From assembly GCA_050084515.1 (NCBI GenBank), contig CM114271.1, positions 36,456,001 to 36,520,000 of the forward strand: a stretch of DNA of 64,000 nt. Direction: 5' to 3'. Below the pieces are notes generated by a model. It did no database searches and was not told where the DNA came from. It saw only the letters and a program-made list of their open reading frames with translations. The DNA comes from Blasia pusilla (taxonomy: Eukaryota). The translations under genes were made by a program, and so were the position numbers. Positions 1 through 64,000 of this stretch are shown here, in pieces (within the stretch, counting starts at the first letter, position 1; each line of letters opens with the position of its first letter).

Positions 1-1210
1 CAATAGAAGCAACGCTAGATATATCAACAAACTTCATCTGGAATAACTTGCTCAACATTGCCATAGAATGAAGTATGTCACCCAGAAAATATAAAATGTA
101 AATCATTTTGAAGGACTTTAACCTCTTTAGAAGATGTGAAGCTACCCCATCATCTTCCTTGGGGTTCACAATAGAGAAGTAGACCATGATCGATTCTAAA
201 CTATCACATAAAGAAGTAACGGCTTACCACCTGCTAAGCTATCTGACCTTCTGATAACGTTTCATGACTTTCCTAGAATCATTTAGCTCTTCTTGTAGAG
301 AAGAAAGACCACACTTCCTCTTAGAACTCTTCTTGAAATAAGATGCAACACAATTCAAAATGTTATCCACCTCATCACTAAGTTCCTTGCACCCTAGACT
401 CTTTGTTGCTGCAAGAGCAGCTAAGTTTGTCCGGTGTGCCACACAATGGACGATTGTCATGTAAGGATTAACATTCCTCTTCAAACGGGCACTTAATCCA
501 TTCCTAGTACCTACCATAGTGTTGGCCCCATCAGACCCAAAACCAACCATCTTCTCAAAATCCAATTCCCATTCCTAAGTAAGGATACTAAACAATCTGA
601 AATGGACTCGGCATCCTTGTTCTCAACCTTGATCAATCCTAAGAAGGTGCACACTTGACCTTCATCAAGGTAAGTGACAAAGGCAACGAGGTGTCTTGTT
701 ACCGATATGTCAGTGGATTCATCTACCATTATTCCGTAAAAGGGACTAAGTCTAACCCTAGCTAGAAGCAATCTTTGAATTATCAAACTAATACATATTA
801 TCATATATGCACATGTCTTGTCATCTTGATACATCGACTTTGTGAGCATCATAGATCCAGATTTGAGTAATGCACAGAGACCAGGGAATGAGGAAAATGC
901 AACATTATACTTAGCCATGAAGTATGCTCCTCGAAATAGATTAAGCACCGCTAAATCGTAGTTTCTATTGGTGCTTGCAATAGCTTTCTGAAGAGTTTTT
1001 CTACCACTATACTGAGCCCAAGCCAGCTTTTTATGTTCCTTGGATTTACCATGGTCTATGAAGGCAGAAATCTTCACATTGATGGCTCCAGATGTGGCAA
1101 ATACAGATTTCCCTCCTGAGTCCTTGCACACTTTACAAAATACCCTCCCCGTGTGAGGCTCAAATTCAATCCATTCAAAAGCTTGATTCCTCTTGTTCTC
1201 TTCAATCTTT
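1..1210 (-). pseudogene. hAT (ZNF862-like) transposase, copy 1, frameshifted; runs off the window start
   Basis: ORFs 511-1131 and 239-565 carry GIMVDESTD, GSDGA, HCVAHRTNLA and KRYQKVR(W) motifs, colinear with the hAT copy at 12710-14948. There is a frameshift near 560. Confidence 0.9.
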
Positions 1211-1260
1211 GAAGTGGTCAGATCAGAAGGAGAATCTATCTCCTCACATGAGTTGGTAGA

Positions 1261-1745
1261 GGGAAAAACTGCTCACCCTAACATATAACCCTAAAACCAG
1301 ATTGCAATGTTGCCAACAAACTAGTAAAGCCCACTTCAAGGAATCCAAGCTTCCAATGAGAGGCTCAGAAAACTTCGAACAAAGAGCAATGAGCACTGAG
1401 AGCAGCGAGGAGTAAACAGTAAACACAATGACAAGCCTGAAACGAGGCGCCGAGGACGAGCGAGCAACGAGGCGCCGAGGACGGCACACGAGCATGTGAG
1501 GAGATAGATAGAGTTTTTCCCTCTACCAAAGGAAAAACTGCTCACCCTAACAATACGAAAGGAAAAACCAGATTGCAATGCTGCCAACAAACTAGTAAAG
1601 CCCACTTCAAGGAATCCAAGCTACCAATGAGAGGCTCAAAAAACTTTTAACAAAGAGCAATGAGCACTGAGAGCAGCGAGGAGTAAACAGTAAACACAAT
1701 GACGAGCCTGAAACGAGGCGCCGAGGACGGCACACGAGCAGCGAG
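1261..1745. repeat. Tandem duplication (~270-bp period) in the 5' non-coding part of hAT copy 1
   Basis: GGAAAAACTGCTCACCCTAACA occurs at 1262 and 1531, and GCCCACTTCAAGGAATCCAAGC at 1330 and 1600. There is an internal ACGAGGCGCCGAGGACG sub-repeat. Confidence 0.85.
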
Positions 1746-2249
1746 GACGGTGAGGAGCAGTACGATAAGCAGCAAGGAGGCTTAGGACTGAGGAGTCTCC
1801 GAGAGTCCGACGAGCATTCATGAAGGATTCGAAGGAGAGAGGAGCAAATGGGAGTCGAGTTGCAAATGCCTCGACCCCTACTCCCCTGGGCCCTTGGACC
1901 CTGACTCCCTCTCTCCCGAAATGTGAACTGCCGCGAGTGCTGTGAGATCATCCGCACCCTAGAAGGGATGGCTGGATGAACGCTGCCCCCTTATCCACTC
2001 CCCTCTTGACACCTGTCGGGGCCGATACCTCCTTCCCCCTATCGGAAAATGCTTACACCCTTCAACTAGTCTCGGTTACGCTGCCGGGAAATTCCAACCG
2101 GTTTCCTCAAAACGGCCGGCGTTTGTGACTTGAAGCAACTCACTTCCAACGATTCCTCATTCCTGTTCAATTTCGTCCCGGGCCAGAATCACGTCCATCG
2201 GAAAATCTCAAATTTTGCCGGCAGCCTTTACAAAGGATGCCGGTACTGT

Positions 2250-3355
2250 CCGGGCTCTTTTCCACTTCAGTCTTCACTCACAGCTTGTAGAGATTCCCTT
2301 CGAGTCGAGGCCAGAGCCGTTCTCCCCACTTTCTCCTCCCTAGTTACCTCCGGTCAGTCTGGGCTCCAATCTTCCTTGATGGAAGCCCACTTTGAGGCAG
2401 TTTTTAGAGGCACTATGTCTGACGGGAATATCCTCATGGAGGTTAGGGCCGTATTCGCTCTTGCTCCGAAAAGGGGGCAGGCTCATGGGTAGGGGCGCGC
2501 CCCCTTCTCCAGGCTTTCCGTATCGCACCACTTACCTATACCACAGCGATGTGGTTCCGCTTGGGCCTCCCCCAACCATCGGTGGTTGGTTCGACACACT
2601 GCGAGTGTTGCCGGAGCCTGGATCCACTTGGTGTGCATTTGGCACGTTGTCCAGTTGGGGGTGAGAGGATAGCCACTCACGATGCAGTGCGGGATATCAT
2701 GTTCAGTATTGCTCGAGAGAGTGGCTTCCATGTGCAGAGAGAGAGGCACTACTCCATGCGGGATTCCCTTATTCGTGTTGATCTCTACATGACACGAGAG
2801 GCTGAGGTGGTGGTGGCGGACGTGGTAGTCACAGATCCTACGCGAGAGGCAGTGCGAGCCCAAGTGGTGGCCCAAGGGCGAATGCTACAAGGAGCGGCGG
2901 CGGCGGTGAAGAAGACACACATCTACAGTCGACTTCACGAGGGACACATCTTCATCCCCTTGGCCATAGAGATGTATGGGGCTATGGGGGAGAGGTTCGA
3001 CTCGTTCCTTACGGACTGTGCCCATCATCTCCACTCGAGAAATGGGTTGTCCTTAGCTACTGCGATTCTCTATTGTAGGCAGCGGGTCTCCATAGCGTTG
3101 CAGCGTGCCCAGGCTAATGGGCTTTTGCGGCGGGCTCAGGCTGTGGGAGACGCCGACGCTAGAGGCCCACTTAGTAGTAGTCATAGCTCTCTTGTTATTG
3201 CTGATATTGTCTCTGCTGTTGGTGAGTTTCGTCGTCAGGGGGACAATGCCCCCTCCTTCCTTTTATGGTCTTGTTATGGTCTTTGTTTTGACTCATTGAG
3301 TCCCCCTCTTTTGTACTTCCGATGGTTTTCATCACTCGTTTTTATCCGGTGCATC
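2250..3355 (+). mobile_element. 5'-truncated CRE-like non-LTR retrotransposon (C-terminal zinc knuckle + restriction-like endonuclease)
   Basis: Translation gives RIRSCSEKGAGSW..., FRLGLPQP, CEC...DPLGVHLARC...RIATHDAVRD, RVDL...VVADVVVTDP, KK..Y, FIPLAIEMYG and RVSIALQRAQA, typical of the C-terminus of RLE-class (CRE/NeSL) LINE ORFs. The 5' boundary is approximate. Confidence 0.75.
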
Positions 3356-3827
3356 CGATTCAACCGGACCGGTATCATCCATACTCTCGTCCAAATCTAA
3401 CTCATCTGCACATCCGGAAGTTTCTTACACGCTCGGCAGTCTAGCACAAATCGTACGCCACAAGATATTTCACACCTGGAATCCCGGATCAGACCTGTAC
3501 CTCGTGATTTGGTCCGCGTGCGTGTGAAAATTCTAATGGCATTGCTGCCAGGAAAGTCCGCTAACTGCTACGAAGTACGAACACTACAATATTGTATAGA
3601 ACTGTCGGAAAGTTTGAGACTCGGAGCGTCGTCTGACTCGTCTTGTTGTGGAATCGGCTGAGCACGTGTTTCGTCCTTATAATGCTCCTCGACTGCCATC
3701 AAGGCTAGGCTAGTGCCGGTGCCGGCATTCCTGGAAACATCTACACACGGATTTCGAAAATTTATGAATAGATTTAAAATTCGGAATCGGGTAGAAAACC
3801 ATAATATAATAATAGGGCGTCTCACTT

Positions 3828-4350
3828 GGAGGCTGTCAAATTTTGAACGTCCTCCGTAAAATAGAGACGCTTTCTTTTATTTATGTTGAGAGATTTCGTA
3901 ATTTCAAGGCCTGCGACTTAAACAAACACACACAAATATGCTTTGGACTTTCGGCAGTAGGAGATGCCACTTGAACACACACAAACATGTTTTGGACGTC
4001 CGGCCTCAACAGTATTCCACCCAAGCACGGAATTTGGCCAAATACATAGTTATGGCTTCGTACGTCCGAGCGTAAGATGCGTTTCTCGGAGGCTGTAAAA
4101 TTTTAGACGTCCTTCAAGCTCTTGACCATAAAATAAATAGAGACGGCTTCCATTTATGTCTGAGGAAAGTTTATATTGAGAGATTCTGTAAGTTTGAAGA
4201 CGTCGATTTAAATACACATGAATATGTTTTGGACGTCCGGGCCGTAGGAGATGAGCGTCCGCCTCCAACGGTAGCCCGCACCCGAGCACAAAATTTGATC
4301 ATATACAGAGTTATGGCTTCATACGTCCCACCCTATGACACATTTCTGAG
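3828..4350. repeat. Degenerate tandem dimer, ~260-bp unit
   Basis: GGAGGCTGT(C/A)AAATTTT occurs at 3828 and 4088. AAATAGAGACG, TTTGGAC...GTAGGAGATG and AGTTATGGCTTC(G/A)TACGTCC are each repeated ~260 bp apart. Confidence 0.7.
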
Positions 4351-7569: not shown

Positions 7570-8130
7570 CACTATTCCCCCAAATTTTTTCAGTTATGTG
7601 TATGCGTGTGGGAAAGGAAAAACACAACTGTTACACTACTCCCCCAAAATTCTTCAGCTATGTGTATGCCTATGGAAAAGGGAAAACACACTATTCCCCC
7701 AAAATTGTTCACTTATGTGAATGCCTATGGAAAAAGAAAAAAAGACATGATCCCCCCAAAATAGTTCGGTTATGTGTATGTCTATGGAAAAGGAAAAACA
7801 CACTATTCCCCCACAATTTTTCGGTTATGTGTATGTCTATGGAAAAAGAAAAAAGCCTTATTCCCCCAAAATAGTTAAGTTATGTGTATGTGTATGGGAA
7901 AGGACAAACACATTATCCCCCCATTTCTTCACTTATGTGTATGTCTATGGAAAAGGAAAAAAAAATTATTCCCCCAAAAATAGTTAAGTTAAGTGTATGC
8001 CTATGGAAAAGGAAAAACACACTATTCCCCGAAAATTGTTCAGTTATGTGTATGTCTATGGAAAAGGAAAAACACGCTTTTCCCCAAAATTGTTCGTTTA
8101 TGTGTATGCCTGTGGAAAAGGCAAAACACG
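7570..8130. repeat. Minisatellite, ~59-60-bp unit, about 9-10 copies
   Basis: The consensus is close to TTATGTGTATGTCTATGGAAAAGGAAAAACACACTATTCCCCCAAAATTGTTCAG, repeated head-to-tail. The repetitive ORFs here are by-products. Confidence 0.9.
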
Positions 8131-9381
8131 CTCGAATGACGTCACTCATGTCATGAGACGTGAGTAGGGGAAATTTCGTGAGTGTCACTCGACCAAATTG
8201 TCGTCTTTACTCTCCCCATCTCACTGGTCGTCGTTAACTTGATGTGGTGCAGGTGGAGACCGTGGAGTCTCGGGCGATCAAGTTGACTTGGTCGGGAAGA
8301 ACGAACAGAAACTCCCTGTACGTGGAGATGCAGTCTGTTAAATGCAGTCTGTATGAGGAAGTGGTACGAGTAGAGGGTATATGGACTTGTCCTCGGCTTC
8401 CGGGGAAAATATCTATGAAAGGAATGGCGGAGAAGAGAAGATTCATCGCTCTTTCCTCGTCAAAAACGAGATTTCGTGTGCTATGGACTCCATAAGAAAC
8501 GAGTTTTAGTTTTCCGACTCCAGCCATACTATGGCTGTGAGCCTACCACGCTTTTGTAAAGTTAGCGCGTTAAACTGGAGGATGTGCTCCCCGAACCCGA
8601 GATCAGAAAAATGTAGCGGCGTTGTTATTTTCGGCGAAAAGGTACTAGGGGAAAGAGTTGGAGACTATATTCCATTCGAAAAAATGAGGAGCCAGGAGGG
8701 CGGAGAATCTAGGCACCTACTCGTGCATTTGGTGGCCGTATACATTCGGGAGATTAGAGGATTGACTTCGACGTTAGACTCGGTCGGCGATGGTCGGAAG
8801 GTCCACGTACCTTTGAAAGATCGTTTGTTCTGAAAATCGCTTGAAATCGGATTCATGTCTGTATCTTCGGTCTGCACTGCACGTAACCCTTCGATCGTCT
8901 GCAGCCGACCGTCGCTCTGTCGGGGAAATCTGCACTCAGGGTATACATGTAACAGAGTTTTTGTGGCTTCCACTTTCGAATCGTTGTACTGTTCAGGTGT
9001 ATGAGTTGCGTCCTCAGCAGCGCGGAGGACCGCCTGCAGTCGCAGTGCGCATCTCCAAATTGATTGAAGGCACAGACACCAGCGTTCAATTTCTTCAGTT
9101 ACGGTGAGTCGACGTTGATCCTTGGCTGGCTGGCTGGCTGGCGGTCTGCGTGAGATTGTGCCTGCAATTGTAGCGTCATCGGTTGTTCTGGATTTGCGTT
9201 TCCACGCCCTTAAGTTAGAGGATTAGGATCAAGATGAAGGTATGATCGGAGTATGTATGCGGAGCAGTCTGATCTTACAGCCGCCAAGAGCTGGGAGGAC
9301 GCACTGACAGTTGACAAAATTGCAGTGTCGTGAAGTGAGGATAGCGGCACCGCGAGCATTTCCTACTTGATTCGCGTGAGG

Positions 9382-12199: not shown

Positions 12200-15100
12200 G
12201 TCATCGGCTCTAGCTGGAAATTTTTATTATCCAGGTTCATTTTCTGGTAAATTTCCATTTTAATCCGTGAAATTCCGAAAATTAAAAAATTTCCGGGCCG
12301 AATTTCCCTCTCGATTCACGGTCACCAACGAGTTTCCGGCTTTTTTTGCATTCACCGGGAAAAATCCGGCCGTTGAAATTTTCGTCAGTAAATTTTCGGC
12401 TAGCAAGTACGGTAGGAAGATTTTCAGCCAGCAAGCAATGTCCTCTCTTTCCCATTCATTCACTATCATCACTCCAACATTCTAAGCAACCCGACTTCCA
12501 ACACTCTACAAAAATTCAACTTCAAAGACCTCATGTCACTTGGTAATAAATCACATATCATTTAGTAAGATATCCTTGGCATGAGTTGAACCTGGTCCCT
12601 CCCACAAGTTGGGAGCCAAGGATCCTCCCCCTCTACAATACTTGGAGCTCCAAAGCTCCAAGTATTCTAAAAGGGCCCTACAAAACCAACAAATCTAAAT
12701 CAAAACATCCTACTTTATAGAAACTCGAGTGTTGTCTCCTTCTACCTCTACTTCTACCTCTAAAGACAAATATTTTTTTGGACTAGCAAAGATATATCTA
12801 AAATGAGCAAAATTTTTCCATAACACAACAGACTCATCCAACAAGTCCTCGTAATCAGAGGAAGGGCCTTCTAAGGAAATCCTCAAAACAGCATCTAAGT
12901 ATTTTGTAGACAACCTATTCCGAGATTTGCTCTTGATCATATTTTGAATGGAGAAAGCTCTCTCGCAAATAGCAGTACTCACACATTGGACTCTAGCAAT
13001 ATTTGCTAAAATCAACAAGTTTGAAAACTTACATTGCAAAGAGGGACTCCAACTTACCATAGCCCATAGGTCCCTAAAGTTGCGATCCTTCCACTCTGTA
13101 GTAGCCATCAGTTTGAAAGACTGAAACTCATGTTTCACAATAGGAGAGTTAATCAAAACAGGTTGCAACTGACCTCTAAGAGGTAATTGGGCTCCAAAGA
13201 AACCACACAAATCATCTAAATCTTTACAGCCCCAACTATTCAATCCCACCTGTCTAGAAGGCATGTGTAAGGGGTTTAGAATTTTCATTGCACCAATAAG
13301 ATGGTTATCTCAAAATCGATCTTGCAAAGCTGAACATACACTTTCAGCAAACCTTTTCTGAAAAAATAATGCAGCCTCCAGATCCCTACATGTGCGATCT
13401 CAAGACATCTCTATACTATGGAACATTTTACCCCTTATCTCAGACTGTAAACGTCAAAGATAGCCACCCGGAGGCCCAAAATCAGGTAAAATGTGATAAC
13501 CTGTGTCTTCAGAGAAGGTCGATGCATTCAAGTCATGTGTTTCCATCACAAAAATTCATAGTGATGGAAGATATCTTGGAATTAACAATGCTTCCTATAG
13601 TGCTAACATCCACAAACTTGTACTGGAAAATCTTGCCCAAATTTGCAAGCATGGAAAGGATATCAGCTAAAAAATATAACTGATAGATCATTTGGAATGA
13701 TCTTAACTTGTTAAATAAATGAGCAGCATTCCCATCATCCTCTGACGGATAAATGTCCCTAAAGTAAATCAACACCGATTCTAGAGAATCACACAATGTG
13801 GAAACGGCTTGCCATCGAGATAACCAACGTATTTTATGGTATCTCTTCATCACTCGCTTGGAATCATTGAACTTTTCCTGCAAAGTGGACATAAGTGTTC
13901 TCCTTTTGGAGGACCTCCTGAAGTAACCAGCAACATAATTGAGAATGGAATCCACTTCACTAGAGATTGCCTTGCAATCAACAACTTTCGCAGCAGACAA
14001 AGCAGCAAGATTTGTCCTATGAGCGACACAATGAACAGATAGAATATAGGGGTTCACCTTTTGCTTCATTTGTGAAGCTACCCCTGTCTCGCTACCTACC
14101 ATTGTCGAGGCACCATCAGAGCCAAAGGCAACCATTTTGGATAATTCCAACCCTCCATCCTTGATGAGTTGTAGCAACATTTCAGTAATAACGTTTAAAG
14201 ACTTTGACTCACACTGAAGTAATCCGAGAAAACAACACTCTGCCTGTCCGTCTTGAATGAAAGTGGCAAACACAACTAAATGACCAGTAACAGATATGTC
14301 TGTGGACTCATCAATCATAATACCAAAAAAGGGAGAAGCCTGAACTCTTGAAAGAGTTCTTCTTAGCAAGACTTGGCTGATGAAATAAGACATTTCGCTG
14401 CAACTCCTTTCATCATGATAAAGATCTCTTGTAATAGGTGCGTTTACAGAAAGAAATAACTTACACAGATTGGGAAATTTCAGAAATGGCATAGCCTCCT
14501 TCGCAAGGAAGTATGCACACTTGAACAATGTTAGGAGGGCTACTTCACAGGTCTGGTTTGTGGTCGCAATGGCCTTGGCCATCGACTTCTTACCTCCATT
14601 AGCAGCCCATGAGAGCTTGATATGCTCATTGGACTTGGCGTGGTCAGTGAACGCAGAGACTTTGCAATTAATTGCCCCATCTTTAGCAAAAGCACTCTTC
14701 CCCTTCCCCTTCCTACAGACTTTAGAGAAAATCCTACCAAGACCTGAATCATAATCAATCCAATCATACATTGAGTACAGCACATCCTTCCACGCAATGC
14801 AAACTTTTTCAAGTAAGGATCCACTACTACCTGACGTAGGTTGTTCATCTTTATCATCGGATGAGCCAGATAATGCAATAATATCTGGCACATCGTTTCG
14901 AGGTCCCTTATCTAAGAATGAACTCATCGTCTTTTGTCTCTTGGCCATAATAACCAATGAACTAGATATGCACGTGAATCAATCTGTCTAAATGAACCCT
15001 AAATCAGACAACGTTTATAGAAGCAAATTCACAACAAAGGCTTGTGCAAAGCTAGTACAGAGAGGTAGTTATGGAAGAAATGCAACATGCGTAGATCTCC

Positions 15101-16707: not shown

Positions 16708-18215
16708 CTCGTGACCCAGGATCTGTGAAAACATTGGTTTGAATTGGTCACGCATGATGTACTTTAGTACTTGGGTTAAAGAAAGACGCAAGTATAGTTT
16801 AGACCATGCAACACCACTTTTCTCCATGTAATTGATGGGATTTATTTATGATGGATCTTAAGTGTTTTTCTTGTTCACGGCTTAACTGTATTGTCATGGA
16901 TAGTCTATCACTTCAATTATGACGCTAACTTCTCCCACTCTCACGGTAGATGTAGTCATTTTCATCATGTTATTCATACACACCCAATGTACTCTCTATA
17001 ATCTTCTTGTCATCTCCTAAATTTTCCCACTCATCCATTACTTAGTTTATTTGAAAGTGCCAAGAAGAAAGACATGGAAAAACAAGACGCGGGAGTTGAA
17101 GGACCAAGTTGCGCAATCATATACAAGGTTGGTTGCTAATTGAATGGTTTATAAATTTTGTTGAAGCATGTGAAGGGCAAGGTCTGGGGAGGTTTTTAAT
17201 TTTTGCAAACAATATCCAGGTAGTCTTAAAGTAGGTTGGAGTTTGAAAGTTGGAGGTCGGTGGTGGCCGGTAATAGTAAAAATGGAGGGCGAAAAACTGA
17301 GTTTTTTTTTCTGCACTCGGTCAAAATCCAAATTTTGATTATTTCTTCGGATAATTTTCTGACTATCCTAAAAGTTGTCTGGCTAAGTTCTCGCTGATTT
17401 CAATATAGTCAATGAATTTTTTGGGGTCCCTGTTTGCTTTCTCCATTCATTTCTTCTTTAGTGCTTGTTCTATATCTGATTTCTTAACTCCTTCAAGTTT
17501 GAGAACTTGGGGAATTAGAGAAGCAAGCATAACACTCCTCCCTTCTTGCTTTCAAACAATTTTGCAAGGGTACATTTAAAACTGAATTTCACATTTACTA
17601 AGGAGATCCTTGTCACGAGTTGAACCTGGCCATGCCTCCCAACAAGTTGGGAGCCAAGGATTTTTCCCCTTCAGAATACTTGGGGCTTTAAGGCTCCCAA
17701 ATATTTTGAAGGGGCTCTAAATCTAAACAAGAATGCATAACTTATTTCAAGAAGACAAGTCAATAGAAGTCGTAACGCCTTCAACTTCTACTTGAGGAGA
17801 AAGATATCTTTATGGGTTAGCATACATGTATCTGAAGTTGGCAGAATTTTTCCATAGAACCATAGATTCAGCAAGCATATCCTCATAATCAGTACTAGGG
17901 CCTTCTAAAGCAATTCTGAGAATAGCATCTGAATGCTTACTACCTAGGCTATTCCTACATTTACTCTTTATCATGTTCTGAATTGAGAATGCTCTCTCAC
18001 AAATTGCAATGCTCACACATTGAACCCTCGCAACATTAGCCAACACCAGCAAGTTTGCAAACTTGCATTGTAAAGCTGGACTCCAACTCACCATTGCCCA
18101 TAGATCCTTGAAATTATGATCTTTCCACTCAATTTTTGCCATCGACTTGAAGGATCGGAATTCCTGCTGACAGCAACAACATTTATGATAGAAGGTTGCA
18201 AATGCCCCTTCAGTG

Positions 18216-18694
18216 TGTCACATCTGAGTAGCCGATAGGCCGAGATCTATCGTGGATAGGGCGTAGGAGCCAGCGGACTATCTTGAGTGTAACTTTGTCC
18301 CACAGTGTCGGATGAGGTTGAGGATAGGTCCATTGTGTCAGGAACGTCGTTTTTTATGACTTTCATGTTGAGGTCTTTTACAACCGGGTGACTTGTTGAC
18401 CAGGTCACTGCCCTGGTAACTTTGTCTTGTATGAGTTACCAAGGGAAGGGCTATTTTTAGGGGAAGAGCCTTTTGGCTCTTCCCAACCTATATAAGAGAG
18501 GAAGATGGCTTTCCTAAGCCATCTTTCTCATGTTGGGCCGTTGGAGCACCTCCCTTGTATGTGTGTGAGCTAGGACTAGGGTGCTAGCGTCCGGATTCCT
18601 TGATAGCACAGGGTGGACGAGGCTCGATATGCCGATGTAGATTAAGGAGTGGAGTTTTAGGCCGGGTGTGCCCTTTTTACTACTCTTTATTTTT
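18216..18694 (+). repeat. Terminal repeat A1 (~479 bp), contains TATA box
   Basis: Near-identical to 27258-27734, with TATATAA at 18489-18495. It is not followed by a B repeat. Confidence 0.93.
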
Positions 18695-20039
18695 ACATGA
18701 GAAAGATGGCAGGGGGCTGGTGGGAATTCGTTGTTTGCAGGTAGGCAAGCGAGTTGCCTTGGTCCGGAGCCCCTGGAGACGTGTGTGTGACGTTGTGTGT
18801 CATTTTTTCTGTTCGGAAGGCCGTGGGCGGACGCGCTGTCCGTTTTTCTCAGATTTTGCTGGTGCGGATTGATGGGGGACAACAGCCGAGTGTAGCGTGT
18901 GGTGGGGCGTCGGGTGTACGCAAGTAAGGGTGTCGAGAGAGAAGGAAAGGGCAGGTTTGGGTCTTGCAGCCGCCGGGGGGCTGTCAAGTAAAGGCGGCTA
19001 GGTTAGGTCGCGAAAGCTAGAGTTAGGTCGCGGACGGCAGGGCGCGGACAGCAAGGCGCGGACGGCGCCTTCCCCCCCCTCTCTCTCCCCCGAGGTGGGA
19101 GGCGCGCATAGGTCGCGCCCCCAGCGCATTTAGGGCCCAAGGGGCCCGTGATAGGCCACGGTCCAAAGTTTCCCCCCCCCCCCTCCAACGTGGTAGGAGT
19201 GGATGCAGTTGTAGCGAACGCGGTGGGCATGGGCAATGTGAGGGCAGGGAGGATGTCGACGTGCTGAGTGATTGGCAAGCTGGACAACGGGCGTGACATG
19301 TTGTTTTTGGGGCGCGACAGGGCATTGCGAGAGTTTACGATGGAGGGGCAGTGTGCATAATGCCGACGGGTTGTCCGCATCTGTTGACGGGAGGATCGAC
19401 ATGTTGGTCGAGGGGAGTGTTATGTGGCGGAGATTGTCATATCATGTGGAGGAGTGCATATTGACGGTGCAGCAGGTTGGAGGGCGTGATCAGGTTATCC
19501 ATTCGAGTCCCTTTTCCCGCACTTGTCGTGTGTGATTGAGAGTGCTGGGTATCGGGTAGTAGCTGGTGCTAGATGGGTGCAGTGATGGTGACGAGTGTAG
19601 ATTCTTTTCATGTGTAGCATGTTGGTGGATATACGGCGGTTGCCGAGTAGGGGTCACGTGTATGACCCGAGAATGTGTCGCTAGGTTAGGTGAGTCAGTT
19701 GGGAGGCTCATGGTGAGCCCGAGTGTTGAGCGTGCGTGAGGTCGGGTATGTCATCACGGGATTGACGTTAGCATAGGTGAGCTAGTGAGGCGTGTGGGAG
19801 ACTCTCAGTGAGTCTGAGTGCTTGAGCGGGTGAGACAGGATTTGTCATCACGGCGTTCTTCTAGGGTTCGGAAGAACGGGGTAGTGCGAGCAGTGGTAGT
19901 GGTGTGACACGGAGTGGAGTGAGATACCGAGGGGTTACCAGTGAGGAGCTCCCTCGACATCCATCCGTGACTGGATCGTCATCACTGGACACTGGGTCTG
20001 GTGACGAGATCACCGAAAGAGACAGTAGTACTTGGCAGG

Positions 20040-21100
20040 AGATGGACGACATGGGCCATCGGGGCATCGTCATTTTCGGTGCAATGGGCACCATCGACTT
20101 AGATGATTTCATCCAGGAGTTCGACACATGGTGCGACTTCCAGGAGATACGGACCGACACGGTTCAACCCTTTCATGGCATGGAAGGGGTTGTTCCAAAG
20201 ATTTGGAGGGTCCTCCGATGGATGACTACATGGAGTTTCGATCACTATATTCAGTAGAGATCGATGACCTGGAGGATGTATCTTGGGCTCAGGGAATGTG
20301 TCCACTAGTGGTCGCGAGGCATATGATGGGATTGTGAGAGGAGAGAGACCCACACTATCAGCCCAGGAGACTAGATGGAGAGGAGGGCAAAGTGAGACAG
20401 GCGATATGGCGAGACCTCTCGGTGGTAGAGGGCCACCCACTTTAGCCCACACGGTGGAGTTCTTCCGGCAGTTGGGGAAGAGCTACCAGGGCGTGCATGC
20501 ACCGACAAGCTGAAGAGTCTCAGGATTTTCAGCGACGATCGGGTGAGAGTCGAGAGAGGCCTTCACACGCATGAGGAGGCTGATCATTGCTACGTTTGGA
20601 GTGATCGAGGCGCAGCCATCCAGATTGGTCTGGGTTCGGACCGAGAACTACGGAAGAGAGTCCGAGATGCGGTCTTGATTCACACAAATGGAAGCCCACA
20701 TTGAAGGTGATCTTTGAGTTGTCGAGCGTATTGAGCTCAACATGAGTGAGGAGCGGTAGTGACCGCTGGATTTTCTCGAGATACGACGGGTCCCAGCGGC
20801 GGTGACCCCACAAAGTGCCACCGAGCACCGATACCACGGAGCGGGCAAGTGTGCCTAGAGAGCAAGCGGGTACCGTGAGCCTATTAGGCAACGACCGCAC
20901 CTACATATGTTGCCTGCAGTGGACCGATGTGGTCTTGTTGGGCGTGTGGAGGGGCCCATAGGCAGAGAGGCGCCACAAGCATGGGGAGAGGATCACGGCG
21001 CCTCCAATTGCGCAGAGAGCCACGAGGATGGCCCCACCACAACACCTGTGTGACCATTGCCCAGATATGGTCACACTAGGGATAGATGTTTTGACCTTCG
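20040..21100 (+). pseudogene. gag-like region with CCHC zinc knuckle (frameshifted)
   Basis: DLDDFIQEFDTWCD near 20095, and C-D-H-C-x-RYG-H-TRDR-C at ~21049-21089 with a 1-nt frameshift. Confidence 0.65.
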
Positions 21101-22729
21101 CCGAGGGGCACGCCCGTCAGGTAGGCCGAGGGCCTGGGGCGGCCGCCCTGGAGGAGGTCGGGGAGTTCTTCTGGGCGTGGTGGTAGAGGACCACCACCAG
21201 CCAGAGGAGATGGAGCAAGAGCACCAGAGCTGGCGCTTCTCTCACGCATCGATCAGTTGGAGCAGAGGATTGTTGCCATGACGATGATGCGGCTTAGGGA
21301 AGGCACGGAGCTCGGCGACTAGTGTGACTCGGTCTCTACCTCTTACCCACGACCGGGTGAGGATCTCGCCAATATGGGATTCATGTGTAGTGCAGCCCAG
21401 GTTGAGGCAGTTGCAGGGGTGACTCGAGGTGCTGCGTGAGGCACCGAGCCATCGAGAGGTGGAGTTGAGATTGACCCACCAGAGGGGACCGATGGGCGGC
21501 AGCCAGGGTTCCCTGATCGTTCACATTGTCGGAGGCACTACACACACCATCGATGGTGCCTCGACAACCAGCGGTGCCTCTGATTCGAGGCACCTCGTCG
21601 GCGTCACGAGGAGTTGGAGTGACAACTCCTATGCCGGCTCGAGTGGAGTCGTGTCGACTATAGTGTTGGAGGTGGCCACTAGAGTGAGTCGACTCGCTAT
21701 TTTCCGCCTTAGAGTTGGCGGCGTTGGGAGTTGGACCGGTGAGGTGTTCGGTTGGGCGCCACGTTGTGTGAGCGTGGAGAGATGAGCGCTTCTTGTTCAG
21801 AGGTAGTTGAGGAGGTGGTGGACTTGCCCTCGAGCCGGTGCTTGGGGCGTTCCCCACGAGTCATGGCATCGCGCGGCGGCAAAGTTGGTAGATATGCCTT
21901 TCGACCGGCCATAGAGCGGCAAAGTGGTGACACTGGAGTAGTGTTCTTTGGATAATCGAGCTAGAGTATTTCGCTTGGTTAGTCGGAGGGGACAAGATAT
22001 ACCACCCAGTAGCGTCCCTACTTGATTCAGAGCGCAACCCTTGATGTTAGGGAAGGCGGCGTGTTTAGCATTGGGGTTCGGAAGGCCGACATTGAGCCTT
22101 GTCCCTTCCAAATACATACCTCGATTGGGGGCGTATCACCCACTCAGTATATGACTCGACAGGAGATTGTTGTGAGAGTCCAGCCAGAGCATGCGACGGA
22201 TAGTGCTATGGTGCGCACACGCGTGCGATTACGACACCCGGTGAGTTATGCGATGTGTTGGTGGGGAGTCTGATGTTATATCCCCTAGATTCATCCTTGA
22301 CCGGGAGGAGACCGTTGCTTATCGGCCAAGATGGCGGTCAGGTGACGGTCGGATGAGTCAGTTACCCGTGCAGTTTGCGGGACGAGGTGGTCGATCACGA
22401 GGCGAGTCTGTGACCACGTTGGCGGCTTTCACAAGTAGTGTTAGCTGGCCAGGAGAGTTGTTGGAGGGGAACGCACATGCGGAGGATGTCCTAGTAGCGG
22501 ATAGTCCCACGGAGAGACAGGCCATGGCGGGTGTCTCTTCCCATGTTAGCGATGCCTCTTCACCATTATGGGGTACGACTCGAGAGCTACAGAGGAGTGC
22601 CGACGACCTCGTGAGGCAGGCGTGGAGTCATGTTTTTATCCTAGAGCAGCGAGAGTCACGTGGCGATCGGGCTCTTGGAGTGGAGACGATGACCCCACTA
22701 GATACCACACATTGTGTGGCGGTGCCTGA

Positions 22730-23680
22730 AGGAGGGTGTTAGGGTGTTGGATCTCTTTGAGGGATTAGCACCGGATTGGCCGCCATATTGCGGCGGGCAT
22801 ACGGGTGCATCATACCTTTATGTGGAGAGAGATGAGACCCGCGCGGCGAGTATCATTACGCCACGTGGCGAGGTTGGTCCAGAGGTATCCGAGTTGTTGT
22901 CGGTATCTGCAGATGACGGGATACCAAAGATACGCTATCCGCCGACATATCTTTGGTGGGAGCGCAGATCTCGGATAGAGTTGGCACCATTCATTTGGTG
23001 ATTCTTTGGATCGCCATGTTAGGGTCATTCATCACTGGCCGAGGATTTGGATTACGGGATCCGAGGTCGGGATGTTTTGGGAGATCTTCGCGAGTAGTAC
23101 AACACTTGCGGGAGAGTCGATATGTTCTCCAAAGATACATTTTGGAGAACGTGCGTTGTTGGGAGATACTCGTGCACGTGTGATGACGAGTGTATATCGT
23201 GTGAGTCTGGTTGGGACCTTTGTGTTGTTAGATGCAGCGAGAGTTGGGTCACGTGCCCATCGCCCACGATCGTGGTGGACGAACCTAATACCATCGAGAG
23301 GTACCGAGTCAAGCCTACGTTGGAGTCAGAGAGCACCACATCTCACAATGGATGCTATTTTGGACTCGGGCGTCGATCTCGGTGGTGACACGCTGATGAT
23401 AGACCACCGTTGGCCACGGCCAATACGGGTGGGGGAGTTGAGGGCAGCCTTACCTCGTTGGTGAGCTTCCCAAAGCATCCCATGCCTTTTGTCGGGAGGG
23501 CGGGCATGATTTGGGATGAGGTGACCGGAGTATTGGAGGAGCCTCAGCAGATGATGAGCGAGCGAGCGCCATGGGGTTCACTACGGTACTACGGGCGGTG
23601 CCGAGGGATGATTGAGGCATCATGGAGACAGTGTTGGGGCGGCGATGGACCTCAAGCTGTCTCACATGGATAGTCACCTA
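22730..23680 (+). pseudogene. DNMT3-like cytosine-5 methyltransferase domain in retrotransposon copy 1
   Basis: Motif I VRVLDLFEG, motif IV GSPC*G (to 23022), motif VI YILENV, motif VIII DAARVGSRAHRPRSWWTNLIP, and motif IX/X remnants at 23535-23670. Several frameshifts. Confidence 0.85.
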
Positions 23681-24059
23681 GGTATGGCGGCAGAGACGGA
23701 TGCGAGTGTCATCCATCCGTCACGTCCACGAAGTTGGATCACGCCTCACGTGGTCTGAGGCATTGGTGGGGCGAGACAAGGAAAGATAGGCACCCATGGA
23801 CTTCTGGGGACGTCGTTCGAGCGAGAGAGTGCGGCGGCTAGAGTAGCACATGTTCATTTTTTGGATGTGGAGCATGGTGTAGGAGGTCGAGTGGAGTGGT
23901 CATTTGCGGAGGTGGCTAGGGGTTGCTATATAGCAACCAAAGCCGGAGGTTGCGTCCTCTCCGAGTGAGGTCACGATGGAGACTTGGGAGCTGTGATAGG
24001 TCTCAAGTTGATAGGAGAGAGAGACGGCAGCGAGTTCATAGGTTTCGAGAGGGCATGTC

Positions 24060-25420
24060 GGTTGTTTTGCCTTGAGATGAGAGACTTGGGTACGCTGTTG
24101 AAGGGTCCCGGGATACGGATTGAGTTGGCTAGTGATACGCCGATCTTTCCTCGACCCTACAGGTATTCTGATATGGAACGAGCCTTGATTTACAGCAGGA
24201 GTCAGGACTTGTTGGAGGGAGGACTTGTGGAGTTATCACATGGGGAATATGCATCCGCGCAGTCATGTCGGCAAAGAAAGGATATGTATGGCAATTGGAC
24301 GGATAGGCGGATGTGTGGAGATTACCGTCCTATCAAGCGATGACAAGGTCAGATCGGTATGCCATGCCTACTCTCGAGGAGATCTTTGATGCGGTAGGGC
24401 ATGCAAAGATCTTGATACTTTAGATCTCGTCTTTGGCTATCATCGCTTCCCTATCAGTTGGAGGACAGGAGAAGACAACGATTCAGGGGATAGATCGGTT
24501 CGGGAGAGATTGCTTGTATCGATGGCGGTTCTTACCATTTGGGTTGAAGAACGCGCTGCTGGAGTTTCAGAGTGATGGATAGGATTCTGGGTGGCTTGGA
24601 TTTTGTACAATGTTACATAGATGATATTCTTATCTTGATTCCACGGTTGAGGAGCATGAGCGACACTTGGAGGAGGTGTTTCGGCGATTGCGATTACATG
24701 GACTGAAGTTACATCCGGCAAGTGCACATTCTTTCAGGAGCAGATTGAGTACTTGGGACACACCATATACCCGAGTGGGTTAGGCGTTCAGTGACGAAGG
24801 TAGAGGCTATTGCAGATTCCACGCCCTCTGGATGTGAGTCGAGTCCGAGCATTTCTTGGACCGGCAAACTTCTATCGACGGTATGTCAAGGGTTTTAGTG
24901 CGATCGCAAAGTCTTTGACCTTGTTGATGAGACTTGATTAGGTGTGGTTGTGGGGAGATGATCAAGAGCGAGCATTTCAGAGTGAAGGACAAAGTTGACG
25001 TCCTCACCCATTTTACAAAGACCGTTAGGGTCGCCCATTCGATTACATACAGTTGGAGCATGTTGGGTCTAGGAGCAAGTGCTTACTCGGAGGGATGACA
25101 AGGAGAGGGAGTTTGTTGTGGCTTACGCGAGCGATCGAACAACATTGCAGAGGCAAAATGCACAGCTCCTACGAGGGAGAGTGCTTGGTGCGGTGTGGGC
25201 CGTGGCACATTTTAGGTGCTATTTATTCGGCAACCCTTTCACACTTATCACCGATCATCGGCCCGTTGAGGTGGTTGATGGAGTCCGACAAGCTTACGGA
25301 AAGCTTGCGGTGGGCTCTATTACTACAGGAGTATGAGTTTGAGGTGGTTCATAGGCCAGGTTGGCTGAACCAGGATGCGGATGGGTTGAGTCGTAACCCA
25401 TGTCCGAGTCAGAGAGACGT
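24060..25420 (+). pseudogene. Reverse transcriptase + RNase H of copy 1 (frameshifted)
   Basis: RPYRYSDMERALI, RMCGDYRPI, PFGLKN, CYIDDIL (~24612-24633), VVAYAS, SYEGEC, LITDH and DADGLSR. Confidence 0.9.
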
Positions 25421-25779
25421 CACGGGAGCTCGATGGCACGGAGAGAGTGATGAGGAGATGGTGTCTGGTTGGCATGCATCTGCCTATCTTTGTTGGTTGA
25501 CTATGGCAGGTCAGCCACAGATGATGACTCCAGTGGTGGGATTGGATGATGAGTCTTTGGATCCGGAGGTTGGTGAGGAGGCGACAGGTGATCGTGATAT
25601 CCATGACGACGTGGAGGTTGTGGAGTTCTTGCGCACTGGCGTCATTGCGAGCACAGTGAATGCTAGGGAGCGGGATCGGATCCTACAGAGAGCCAAGAGG
25701 TTCAGGTGGGAGGGGACTCACATTTTGCGGGTATGGGGAGATGGTAGGATACGAGTGGTACCTCATCCTTCCCAGCGAG

Positions 25780-27040
25780 CACGTGTAGTGCGACATGCCC
25801 ATGAGGAGTTGGGACATTTCGGAGTAAAGCGTACTTACAGCTTACTCCAGGTTCAATATTGGTGGGGCGGCATGCATACTGGGGTACAGCAGTTTGTGGC
25901 CAGATGTATGGTATGTGACAGAGTGCGAGCATCCTTCAATGCTCCCACTCCACGGTTACATCCTTTGCCGATTATGGGTTTAGGTTATCGGTGGAGTTTA
26001 GACTTTGCGGGACCTTTGCCATTGACAGGGCGTCATCATAGGTACGTGTTGGTCATGGTGGAGCATTTCTCCTTGTGGATAGAGTTGGTGGCACTACCAG
26101 ACAAGGCGAGCAAGGGAACAGCTTATGCGTTTCTAGATTGTGTGCTTAGTCACTTTGGTGCACCGGCGGAGGTGTTGACTGACCAGGGTACCGAGTTCAG
26201 GGGAGAGTTTTAGGCCTTGTGTGATCAGGCGCTGATATATCACCGCACCACGTCCAGGGATCATCCTAAGGCGGATGGATTGGCGGAGAGAGTGGTACAG
26301 ACGGTGAAGAGAGGATTGCGCAAGTATGGCTTGCAGCGGGGACAGTTGAGGGAGTGGGACCTACAGTTGCCATGGTTGGCTATGGGTTATTGCTTTAGTT
26401 GGGAGGCATCCTTGGCGTCATTTTCACCGTAAGTTTTGCTCTTTGGGAGAGAGCCAGATTTACCTGCAGCGATTCGACGTGACATGGCGGAGGTGTTAGA
26501 TCTTGATGATCCAGATGTGTGGGTGCAAGCATGTTCTCAGAGGGCAGAAGTTTTTTCGTAGAGTTATGCCTATGGCCTTTGAGAACTTAGCTATTGCCCA
26601 GCATAGAGATACATTGAGGTACGCGACCATTCGTGGAGGAGGTTATAGTCCAGGGATTAGGAGGTTTCATCCTGGAGATTACGTGTATTTACAGCAGGCG
26701 GCACTCACGACGCTAGATGTCACTGTAGGGCGCACGATCCTACGTGTGCGCGAGGTATTACCGACCGGAGTCCTCATGTTGGAGGGACGAGATGGTATGG
26801 TTTGGAAGGATCATGTGTGCAATTGTGCGCCATGTCATCTTCCGAACGTAGATGGGATGGTGGATCCGAGCTTGGTAGTGGTACCTGCAGGCTTGAGGTG
26901 TATGTTGTGCGGATTTGCGAGGGGTGCAGCCACCATGTTGGTATGTGATGGTTGTTCTCGAGGGTGGCATATGTCATGTCTGACCCCCCCCCTCTTGATG
27001 TGGTTCCCACGGAACCATGGATGTGTCCGAGATGTGTATA
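25780..27040 (+). pseudogene. DDE integrase followed by C-terminal PHD finger (copy 1)
   Basis: HHCC zinc domain (HEELGH...CMVC), core WSLDFAGP / VLTDQGTEF / GLAERVVQTVK, then PHD CMLC...LVCDGCSRGWHMSCLTPPL...WMCPRC. A few in-frame stops. Confidence 0.92.
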
Positions 27041-27106
27041 GGGTAGTAGGTCATGTTAGAGAGATGTGATATTTTCTATCTGGAGTTAGGAGGATCCAAC
27101 TGCCAG

Positions 27107-27117
27107 CTAGGGGGGCG
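27107..27117 (+). other. G-rich polypurine-tract-like motif immediately before B1
   Basis: CTAGGGGGGCG directly precedes B1. The same TAGGGGGGCG motif precedes B1 in copy 2 (59082-59091, -). Confidence 0.7.
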
Positions 27118-27255
27118 GTTGTGTGATCTCCATGTATATGTATGAGTTGATTTTTGTACATGTGTGGATCGACCCGTGTGTGGGGAAGATCGGTGTTGTG
27201 TGGTGTAGATGTGACAAGCGATGTATGTTGTGTAGCGATATGTATGCGCACGACA
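27118..27255 (+). repeat. Repeat B1 (138 bp)
   Basis: Three mismatches versus 27735-27872 by eye. Ends CACGACA and is followed by GT and then TGTCAC (start of A2). Confidence 0.93.
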
Positions 27256-27257
27256 GT

Positions 27258-27734
27258 TGTCACATCTGAGTAGCCGATAGGCCGAGATCTATCGTGGATA
27301 GGGCGTAGGAGCCAGCGGACTATCTTGAGTGTAACTTTGTCCCATAGTGTCGGATGAGGTTGAAGATAGGTCCATTGTGTCAGGAACGTTGTTTCTGACG
27401 ACTTTCATGTTGAGGTCTTTTGGCCTTGGTGACTTGTTGACCGGGTCACGCCCCTGGTAACTGTGTGCGCAGCAGTTACCAAGGGAAGGGCTATTTTTAG
27501 GGGAAGAGCCTTTTGGCTCTTCCCAACCTATATAAGAGAGGAAGATGGCTTTCCTAAGCCATCTTTCTCATGTTGGGCCGTTGGAGCACCTCCCTTGTAT
27601 GTGTGTGAGCTAGGACTAGGGTGCTAGCGTCCGGATTCCTTGATACCACAGGATGGACGAGGCTCGATATGCCGATGTAGATTGAGGAGTGGAGTTTTAG
27701 GCCGGGTGTGCCGCTTTTACTACTCTTTATTTTT
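27258..27734 (+). repeat. Repeat A2 (~477 bp)
   Basis: Copy of 18216-18694. Confidence 0.93.
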
Positions 27735-27872
27735 GTTGTGTGATCTCCATGTATATGTATGAGTTTATTTTTGTACATGTGTGGATCGACCCGTGTGTGG
27801 GGAAGATCAGTGTTGTGTGGTGTAGATGTGACGAGCGATGTATGTTGTGTAGCGATATGTATGCGCACGACA
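27735..27872 (+). repeat. Terminal repeat B2 (138 bp)
   Basis: Copy of 27118-27255; ends CACGACA immediately before TSD AGTG. Confidence 0.93.
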
Positions 27873-29587
27873 AGTGGTAACTCAAATCCAAAATGTACAC
27901 ACAACTCTTATATATCCTTACATCTCCAACTTATGAGTCCTACTTGTCTAGAAGGCATGTGCAAGGGGTTCAAGATTTTCGTTGCACCAATAAGATTATT
28001 GTCTCTAAATTGATCTTGCAAAGCTATACAAACACTCTCGGCATAACTCTTCTGGAACAATAGAGCAGCTTCTAAATCCTTGCCTGTGTGATCCCTAATC
28101 ATGTCTATAGTATGGAACTTCCTGCCTCTAATTTCATACTGTAAGCGTCTGAGATAGCCACCTGGAGGTCCAAAGTCCGGTAGAATGTGGTAACCTGTTA
28201 CCTGTATCCTTTGAAAAAGTAGATGCATTCAAGTCATGAGTTTCCATCACAAAATTAAGTAGCAGCAATCTCACAGCTAACAATGCTGCCAATTGTACTT
28301 ACATCAACAGATTTGTACTCGAATTTCGTGCTTAAGTTAGCCAACATAGAAAGAATATCAGCCAAGAAGTACAATTGATAAATCATACTGAACGATCTTA
28401 ACTTGTTATATAAGTTTACAACATTCCCATCATCTTTTGAAGGGAAAATGTCCCTAAAGTAAGTTAAAACAGATTCTAGTGAATCACACAAAGTGGATAT
28501 AGCTTGCCATCGTGACAACCATCGGATCTTATGATATCTTTTAATGACTCTTTAGGAGTCATTCATCTTCTCTTGTAGAGAAACTAGAACAACTTTTCGT
28601 TTACATGACCTCTTGAAATACCCTGCTACAGCATTGAGAATAGAATTTTCTTCTATGGAAATGGATTTGCAATTACTTGCTTTAGCAACTGTGAGAGCTA
28701 CAAGGTATGTCCTATGAGCAACACAATGCACTGAAAGAATGAAGGGATTTACCTTTTGCTTCAATTGTGAAGCCATCCCATCTTGGCTCCCTACCATTGA
28801 GAAGTCTCCATCTACCCGAAACCTACCATTCTAGAAAAGTCTAGCCCCCCATCTTTAAGTTACTTTAACAAACTATTAGGGATAGCATTAGAACACTTAG
28901 ACTCGCAGCGAAGCAATCCTAAAAAAAAACACTCTGCTTGACCATCTTCTATGAAGGTTGCAAAGGCTAGCAAATGCCGTGTAACAGATATGTCAATAGA
29001 TGCATCAATCATTATTCCAAAGAATGGTGACGCCTGAACCCTAGCAAGGGCCCTTTTGAGCAGAACTTGACTTATACAAAAACACATCGCATTGCAACTT
29101 TTCTCATCATGGTAAAGATCTTTAGTGATAGGTGCATTCAGGGAAAGCATCAGCTTACAAATACCGGTGAACTTCGAGAGAGGCATGGCCTCCTTCGCAA
29201 AAAAATATGCACACCTAAATAAAGCTACCTCACATGTTCGATTGGATGTAGCAATAGCCTTGGCCATGGAAATTTTTTGCCTCCATTAGCTACCCAAGCT
29301 AACTTGATATGCTCATTGGACTTTGCATGATCAATGAAGGTAGACACCTTACAATTAATGGCACCCTCCCTAGCAAAGACATTCTTGCCTTTGCCTTTTC
29401 TACAGATATTACAATTAATTCTTCCAATCAAAGAATCGAAGGTGATCCAATCATACATGATGTACCAAACATCCCTCCAGGCTTCTCGATTTTTCACAGC
29501 TATGGATACATTGCTTCCTAATGTACTCTCCTCTTCCTTCTCATCAGATGATCTTGACAAAGCTATGATCTCTGGTAAAGCCTTGGG

Positions 29588-52209: not shown

Positions 52210-52870
52210 TGGTGGTGTGCAGTTGGCACGGTGTCCAGACGGGGATGAGAGGACAACCATTCACGATGCCGTGCGGGATATTATATTTTGTGTTGCTCGG
52301 TAGAGTGGCTTCCATGTGCCAAAGTAAAAGCACTTTTCCATATAAGATTTCTTTATCCGTGTTGATCTTTACATAAGTGGTGGTAACGGATGTTGTAGTG
52401 ACAGATTCTATGTGGGAGGCGACGCGAGCCCAAGTGGTGGCATAAGGGAGATTGCTACAAGGAATGGCGACGGCGGCAAAAAAGACCCGCATTTATAGTC
52501 AACTTCATGACGCACATCGATTTATCCCCCAGCCCTTGAGATGTATGGAATTATGGGGGAAAAGTTTGACTCATTCCTTACGGATTGTGCCCATCGTCTC
52601 CACTCAAGAAATGGGTTATCCTTAGCCAATACGATTCTTTATTGTAGGCAACGGGTCTCCATAAGTTTGCGAGGCAAATGAGCTTTTGCGACGGGCTGAG
52701 ACGTCAAAGTTAGAGGCCCATTTAATAGTAGCCATAGTTTTCTAAGCGTTATTGATATCGTCATTACTGTTTGTGAGTTTCGTTTCTCTTCGGGCCGGTT
52801 TTGACCAGGAGGTTTTTTTCTTTACGCACCCTCCTTTGTATTCCATGGGTTTTCTATTCAAGTTTCTATT
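52210..52870 (+). mobile_element. Older, decayed CRE-like non-LTR fragment
   Basis: Colinear with 2630-3340 (CACGATGC.GTGCGGGATAT, GCGAGCCCAAGTGGTGGC, TTGACTCATTCCTTACGGA, TATTGTAGGCA.CGGGTCTCCAT). Confidence 0.8.
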
Positions 52871-63988: not shown

Positions 63989-64000
63989 AGTTGACTCTGT

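Follow-up and report, generated by a model that had tools for sequence, protein, structure and literature searches.

A gypsy-type retrotransposon of Blasia pusilla with split direct repeats and a candidate integrase site inside its inferred long terminal repeat

We describe a Ty3/gypsy-type retrotransposon, here called copy 1, in a 64,000-nucleotide (nt) stretch of Blasia pusilla DNA (GenBank assembly GCA_050084515.1, contig CM114271.1, forward strand positions 36,456,001 to 36,520,000). We refer to this entire stretch as the window. Copy 1 spans positions 18216-27872 and carries split direct repeats in the order A1, coding region, B1, GT, A2, B2. We lean towards the view that integrated copies of such elements are circular permutations of an ordinary complementary DNA (cDNA), with the integrase cutting a palindromic site inside the long terminal repeat (LTR) and not the LTR tips. 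Note that, in the accepted view of LTR retrotransposons and retroviruses, linear cDNA is integrated via those tips. The window had previously been annotated from its letters, and we mention claims made in this first-pass annotation where our results bear on them.

Results

Repeats and boundaries of copy 1

Repeat A1 (18216-18694, plus strand, beginning TGTCAC) and repeat A2 (27258-27734) are 94.4% identical over 479 nt. Similarly, B1 (27118-27255) and B2 (27735-27872) are 97.8% identical over 138 nt. The B1 and A2 repeats are separated by GT, and B2 forms the right terminus of the integrated element. No B-like sequence follows A1 in copy 1. Our repeat alignment hence returns the positions of A1, B1, GT, A2 and B2 given in the first-pass annotation. 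A 4-base-pair (bp) target-site duplication, AGTG, is present at both borders (18212-18215 and 27873-27876). Copy 1 is inserted in a hAT-like gene, and its boundaries had been fixed by realigning this gene with a paralog and by the AGTG duplication. When copy 1 and one AGTG are excised, the flanks are colinear with the paralog at 12950-13420 (321 of 434 positions identical, with a single 1-nt gap upstream). We also sampled approximately 1 in 100 raw Hi-C reads from a run with the same species label. Here, 11 reads connect position 18212 with 27875, and represent unoccupied paralogous sites.

The same reads indicate abundance. Summed over both mate orientations, depth was 413 to 3850 in copy 1, compared with 31 and 41 in the flanks. 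Hence, the family has very many copies. We conclude that the lineage is present at thousands of copies in the Blasia pusilla genome, and it is spread across bryophytes. At the B end, 2113 and 2225 raw reads run off into heterogeneous sequence (agreement 0.33 and 0.35). Among the raw reads, most subfamilies share only the last 39 nt of B, and loose read ends are seen before position 27217. Read depth was low at 18771-19484, so this stretch is specific to a subfamily. RNA reads were nearly all in the sense orientation (up to 20.3, compared with at most 3.3 antisense). Of these RNA reads, 41 span the end of B, the two-nucleotide spacer (hereafter nn) and the start of A.

Encoded domains

The order of domains in copy 1 is protease, DNMT3-like methyltransferase, reverse transcriptase, RNase H, DD35E integrase and PHD finger. 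This is the Ty3/gypsy Pol order, with a gypsy-type RNase H, and with a methyltransferase inserted between protease and reverse transcriptase. Matches to Pfam were obtained for RT_RNaseH, Integrase_H2C2, rve and the PHD finger. All features are on the plus strand. A decayed region at 18711-21900 comprises the 5′ untranslated sequence and a gag-like segment, whose homologs are labelled CCHC or gag by their sources. The aspartic protease region is also decayed (approximately 21900-22300) and was recognised by likeness to copy 2, described below. The decayed cytosine-5 methyltransferase domain (approximately 22750-23700) has an ILENV motif at 23139, and so retains the ENV motif; it has an equivalent in copy 2. 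The reverse transcriptase is frameshifted (approximately 24100-24900, with YIDD at 24614), and is followed by RNase H (24968-25291; RT_RNaseH E-value 1.1e-11). The integrase (25767-26267) combines an H2C2 zinc domain with a DD35E core that contains one stop codon. The catalytic D and D-35-E residues, read by eye in the translation, are retained. A PHD finger (26899-26994) forms the C-terminal end of the polyprotein. This occupies the place of a chromodomain, which was not found at the integrase C-terminus.

The first-pass annotation called the enzymes Ty3/gypsy with a DDE integrase, and the Pfam matches agree. The DNMT3-like domain and the PHD finger are content that it did not include. Searches of all six frames of copy 1 (E-value of 0.01 or below) and of three frames of copy 2 (E-value of 1 or below) gave no match to a tyrosine recombinase (Phage_integrase).

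Copy 2 is on the minus strand and is clipped by the end of the window. Its 3′ end (58499-59092) consists of a polypurine tract, B1′ (59080-58975, 106 nt), AT, A2′ (58972-58605, 368 nt) and B2′ (58604-58499, 106 nt), after which comes TTCG. The B-A-B 3′ end that had been reported for this copy is present, and the repeat lengths are 106, 368 and 106 nt rather than 107, 367 and 107 nt. The interior (59093-64000) is 67-72% identical to that of copy 1 and contains a protease-methyltransferase open frame, reverse transcriptase, RNase H, an integrase remnant and a PHD finger. Pfam matches were to RVT_1, RNase H and PHD, and to what is left of H2C2. The open frame (62234-64000, 589 residues) has a protease DSGA motif and then methyltransferase motifs. 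The methyltransferase stretch, when read through, matches solved chains of DNMT3A, 3B and 3C from an E-value of 3.2e-11. The PF00145 score is 19.4 bits in this decayed copy, under the cut-off of 22, and is above the cut-off in homologs. Copy 2 has an internal deletion, and lacks the integrase core. Copies 1 and 2 are both dead, having numerous stops and frameshifts.

The same layout in related loci

A scan of metagenome contigs identified 177 relatives, and 80 loci were retained. Mapping of A and B gave matches in 43 of the 80. Upstream copies of A (n=32) are followed by the primer-site motif in 27 cases and are ambiguous in five; in no case does B follow. For downstream copies of A (n=10), eight run into B. 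The other two belong to a single site, where a primer-site copy and a further 4 nt precede B. Ends of B (n=34) lead into nn-A on nine occasions and into flanking DNA on 25. The complete arrangement A...B-nn-A-B is present in seven loci (six sites) that have both ends on the contig. A 3′ end with a single B is found in 15 loci (14 sites), seven of which are complete A...B units. Target duplications of 4 bp were seen at all 15 sites with readable ends, and are perfect in 12 and have one mismatch in three. They border A...B-nn-A-B and A...B copies alike. No integrated copy bounded by two identical LTRs was encountered among these loci; all are A...B-nn-A-B or A...B. Identical LTRs, of the form B-nn-A, would belong to the cDNA only.

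The first-pass annotation had proposed that the layout is a family trait and not a one-off, and had set against this a full A+B (or B+A) LTR at both ends of most members. With none of the 32 upstream A copies carrying B, nine loci with B-nn-A-B and the same 3′ end in copy 2, the proposal stands. Raw reads and contigs of four runs also span the B-A-B junctions that it had drawn.

Two loci, L042 (B-nn-A-B) and L062 (single B), share an insertion site and a target duplication, and their flanks are 95-98.7% identical. Hence, deletion between B1 and B2 does occur. The interiors of L042 and L062 are 91% identical. Being less alike than the flanks, they indicate that the element changed several times faster than its surroundings.

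Protein relatives named by their sources are from the bryophytes Marchantia, Sphagnum and Calypogeia, several with PF00145. The exception, P0110, is filed under a bacterial metagenome-assembled genome (MAG). No Klebsormidium-named proteins were returned in the protein searches for relatives, and viral contigs gave only weak methyltransferase-like matches. In distant metagenome proteins, of 1800-2200 residues, a single frame encodes methyltransferase, reverse transcriptase, RNase H, integrase and PHD. In distant intact relatives (P0084-P0105), the methyltransferase is between RNase H and integrase, compared with between protease and reverse transcriptase in the copy 1 group. Hence, the domain has either moved, or been acquired twice, within one PHD-bearing gypsy lineage. 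No terminal repeats were found on the contigs of the distant intact relatives L081 and L082. These contigs are titled as bacterial MAGs (Minisyncoccia, Cyanobium and Spirochaetia appear in such titles), and the gypsy-DNMT polyproteins that they encode are intact, with 2152 and 3265 residues. Bacterial MAG contigs of this kind are most likely mis-binned eukaryotic DNA.

Priming sites and the predicted cDNA

The 16 nt directly after A1 (18695-18710) are a perfect complement of a segment inside A1 (18518-18533). In a control, the longest complement to A1 among 1195 interior 20-mers was 10 nt. Locus L025, of the copy 2 family, also has a 16-nt complement, of different sequence (control maximum of 10 among 1166). 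The segment in A1 is approximately 30 nt past a TATA box seen by eye at 18488-18496, which has a counterpart at 27528 in A2 and a putative promoter function. In L025, the equivalent segment is approximately 31 nt past a TATA-like box, and A2′ of copy 2 contains a segment matching the self-primer of its family. Segment 18518-18533 is thus placed as a predicted RNA 5′ end. In the predicted fold of an RNA from 18518 to 18712, the 5′ end is paired to the primer site (-76.2 kcal/mol, z-score -3.9, with none of 200 shuffles as stable). These complementarities point to self-priming of the Tf1 type in copy 1, with a predicted transcript start in A1. No transfer RNA (tRNA) genes were found within the 64-kb window. 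In both families, a copy of the primer site also precedes the self-primer after the TATA box, and could form a small hairpin (18502-18525; A coordinates approximately 150-181 in the loci).

At the other end of the interior, B1 is immediately preceded by a polypurine tract that contains G6. In copy 1 this tract is at 27106-27117, and it is conserved in copy 2 and in related loci, with the exception of three loci that have internal deletions. In LTR elements, the primer site is next to U5 (unique 5′ region) and the polypurine tract next to U3 (unique 3′ region). The same arrangement is found here, at the end of A and the start of B. By the usual logic of reverse transcription, with a primer site directly after A and a polypurine tract directly before B, the LTR of the cDNA should be B-nn-A. 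Repeat A1 would then comprise part of U3, together with R (the transcript repeat) and U5. Since both sites are placed as in self-primed gypsy elements, reverse transcription looks ordinary.

Integration ends and the abutted-end site

Integrated copies begin at the A start, TGTCA, and finish at the B end, GCACGACA. Both ends are conserved between copies that are otherwise approximately 70% alike. Where the end of B meets the start of A, the spacer is 2 nt in all 11 junctions (GC and AT four times each, and GT, AC and TC). With GC or AT as spacer, the junction is a perfect 10-bp palindrome. The GT, AC and AT spacers each differ from GC by one or two changes of the C>T or G>A kind. Ancestrally, the abutted-end site is the palindrome GACA-GC-TGTC. 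In copy 1 it occupies 27246-27267, with the GT spacer at 27256-27257, and is our candidate for the site of integrase recognition and cleavage. The B1 repeat is UG-rich and has a family-conserved tail of 39 nt ending CGACA. Directly before this tail is an inverted copy of the A start (27207-27216, compared with 27258-27267; B coordinates approximately 65-77 in the loci). The inverted copy covaries with the A start between families, matching at 10 of 10 positions in copy 1 and approximately 11 of 13 in the other family.

The border between A and B has different properties. It is direct at eight of ten sites. The L013 border contains 17 nt together with the final 3 nt of the polypurine tract, and a short templated-looking repeat. 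In loci L055 and L023 the border has a primer-site copy of 9-10 nt and a further 4 nt. In a Logan contig from run X1, of the copy 1 family, the A end and the B start are separated by 9 nt of primer site and then 6 nt. Note that the end of A and the start of B share at most one letter. The primer-site and polypurine-tract letters suggest that the border is remade in each cycle and not copied from RNA. In retroviral 2-LTR circles, the end of U5 meets the start of U3, sometimes with letters from the primer site or polypurine tract. The A2/B2 border of copy 1 would, in the same way, be a U5 end fused to a U3 start.

Other features of the window

Copy 1 interrupts the second of two paralogous hAT-like genes (12950-14421, and 17810-18215 plus 27873-29115), which are 70-79% identical. 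The hAT dimerisation domain scored 20.3 bits, just short of the Pfam cut-off of 21.4. A tandem array at 7620-8144 has a period of approximately 55 nt, with seven overlapping 139-nt copies of 62-84% identity. A dispersed direct repeat of approximately 320 nt (2629-2959 and 52213-52529, 77-80% identity) is probably another repeat family. A pair of repeats at 1293-1729 was considered as a further B-A-B end, and was rejected. Both retrotransposon copies are rich in G and T on the coding strand, with a GC skew of +0.19 to +0.27 in copy 1 and, on the plus strand, -0.22 to -0.26 for copy 2. The skew of the flanks is near zero. Among raw reads of the family (run X18), C>T and G>A account for 1246 of 2050 differing places. 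The G/T skew may be native or may come from strand-biased deamination.

Discussion

A route from cDNA to the split-repeat layout

We propose the following route. Transcription would begin in A, approximately 30 nt past the TATA box. By base pairing with the 16 nt after A1, the first 16 nt of the transcript would serve as primer for the minus strand, as in Tf1-like self-priming. Plus-strand synthesis would be primed at the polypurine tract abutting B1, giving a cDNA of the form LTR′-interior-LTR′, in which LTR′ is B-nn-A. The integrase would then bypass the tips of LTR′ and act at the internal site, at which 2 bp separate the end of B (GCACGACA) from the start of A (TGTCA). If one such site is hydrolysed in the normal way, 3′ of each CA, this would leave a break with a 2-nt stagger, equivalent to two processed ends. 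For the daughter to retain the whole downstream LTR′, the tips of the cDNA (the A end and the B start) would have to be joined beforehand, in the manner of a 2-LTR circle. Opening at the junction on the side of the primer site would then give A-primer site-interior-polypurine tract-B-nn-A-B with a 4-bp duplication. The shorter A...B copies would be derivatives, generated by B/B deletion in at least one case. The first-pass annotation spoke of a hybrid replication strategy. A step beyond the ordinary LTR cycle is indeed needed. However, the word hybrid overstates this, since only the choice of integration ends is unusual.

Other models were considered and did not reproduce the observed order. 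These were priming at the A start, an LTR of A+B that loses the 5′ B, and rolling-circle production of plus strands. Long 5′ flaps from blocked strand displacement yield only A...B.

A stricter form of our proposal is that the lineage integrates only via the abutted-end palindrome inside the cDNA LTR, and does so from tip-joined cDNA (a 2-LTR circle or an equivalent). We offer this tentatively, and believe it rather less than we doubt it.

Several points weigh against our proposal, in either form. The suggestion that integrase may cleave the internal site is drawn from the end positions of integrated copies, and we know of no integrase that requires an internal site. Neither a transcript start nor a poly(A) site nor cDNA was seen for the element, and read mapping gave no positions where many molecules start or stop. 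Every examined copy is dead, and no open frame in the 80 loci exceeds 545 amino acids. A symmetric 2-LTR circle has two equivalent junctions, so a mirror form, A-B-nn-A-interior-B, is expected equally often. This form was found at none of 32 upstream ends, compared with eight sites of A-interior-B-nn-A-B. Hence, either the substrate is asymmetric, or mirror copies collapse by recombination between two close copies of A. The origin of the shorter copies is a further difficulty. Terminal branch lengths gave no difference in age between A...B and A...B-A-B copies (p = 0.78), in a comparison that double sampling of some loci confounds. The single B of L062, aligned with B1 and B2 of L042, has a mixed pattern and is not a clean B1/B2 chimera. 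The A...B copies may be deletion derivatives or, in part, may result from direct integration of forms with one LTR.

Alternative explanations

The absent mirror form is accommodated if the ends and the integrase site are as we propose and no closed 2-LTR circle is made. The A|B border would instead arise from a plus-strand jump of the reverse transcriptase, from where its template stops to the opposite cDNA end, or from host joining after integration. An asymmetric substrate of this kind would account for the lack of mirror copies among the 32 upstream ends. The extra letters at borders (the primer-site copy, the polypurine tail and the L013 repeat) also suit template switching as well as they suit end joining. 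We nevertheless consider this unlikely. A plus-strand jump would have to work efficiently without homology, as the A end and B start have at most one letter in common. No sequence feature accounts for synthesis halting at the junction, although the inverted copy of the A start within B is a putative candidate. Direct support for an asymmetric substrate was not found in the sequences.

Replication like that of DIRS elements is still less probable. In such a scheme, RNA would run from part of A1 to B2, the B1-nn-A2 segment would serve as bridging template for restoring the ends, and the integrase would replace a tyrosine recombinase. The cDNA would thereby be produced directly, as A...B-A-B or as a circle of one unit. 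The repeat layout is indeed that of PAT, Ngaro and TOC elements, as described in print (PMC4157794, PMC7192593 and PMC5890265). However, a primer site at the A end, and a polypurine tract at the B start, are what a conventional LTR element with the LTR B-nn-A would have. An A2|B2 border copied from RNA should not gain letters from the primer site or polypurine tract. Furthermore, no recombinase was found, and all 15 sites have target duplications.

Finally, decay of both window copies and the internal deletion in copy 2 would suit rearrangement in copy 1 of an ordinary LTR element (LTR A+B or B+A), or a misassembly, but we give this almost no credence, given the same layout in copy 2, in nine independent metagenome loci and, in a published figure legend, in Klebsormidium (PMC5890265), the lack of B after any of 32 upstream A copies, junctions covered in four runs, and exact duplications bounding A1 and B2.

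Relation to known elements

The layout was thought undescribed in the first-pass annotation. This is not so, because it is in print for KnitGypsy-Dnmt3, a gypsy element of Klebsormidium nitens with Dnmt3 in Pol (de Mendoza et al. 2018, PMC5890265). A figure legend in that article depicts DIRS-like repeats together with gypsy domains, and the excerpted text gives no mechanism for the layout. As portrayed there, KnitGypsy-Dnmt3 resembles copy 1 in having a gypsy Pol with an internal Dnmt3-type methyltransferase, and repeats in the order A-coding-B-A-B. Copy 1 differs in its host, another plant, and its nearest named relatives are bryophytes; note that the two elements are likened by description. 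A passage of a 2026 preprint names 'Gypsy-DNMT3' of streptophytes in passing. Our literature searches returned nothing after 2018 that follows up or explains a gypsy element with split repeats. We conclude that copy 1 is an element of the Gypsy-DNMT3 kind in another plant group. New here are the self-priming complement, the polypurine tract abutting B1, the abutted-end site and the circle-like letters at A|B junctions.

Elements of the PAT, Ngaro and TOC1 type, with DIRS order, have split direct repeats (A1 ... B1-A2-B2), as does copy 1. They encode a tyrosine recombinase and no DDE integrase, whereas copy 1 has H2C2 and DD35E domains and 4-bp duplications. Self-priming is known for Tf1/sushi and predicted for plant Tcn1 chromoviruses, Tcn1 being present in mosses (Neumann et al. 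2019, PMC6317226). In both, the primer site is complementary to the start of the element's own transcript, as predicted in copy 1. Unlike copy 1, with its PHD finger, methyltransferase and permuted ends, they have ordinary LTRs and a chromodomain.

With respect to joined ends, abutted LTR tips form the junction of a retroviral 2-LTR circle. In the copy 1 lineage, by contrast, the reactive site would be inside the LTR and the tip junction would be passive. Retroviral 2-LTR circles are regarded as dead ends. Abutted ends are used by bacterial insertion sequences (IS). In IS3/IS911 circles and IS30/IS21 tandems, a DDE enzyme acts on element ends abutted across 2-3 bp. Note that these are DNA transposons without reverse transcription, and we claim no descent between them and copy 1.

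An obligatory joined-end precursor of integration has, to our knowledge, been shown for no LTR retrotransposon or retrovirus. If our stricter proposal is true, a joined-end intermediate would be the obligatory precursor for a DD35E integrase, and split repeats of the DIRS type could arise without a tyrosine recombinase. If confirmed, our proposed route would provide a mechanistic link between integrase and tyrosine-recombinase retroelements, and would make circular or joined cDNA productive again. In practical terms, LTR finders that seek two identical terminal repeats will misdraw or miss such abundant elements.

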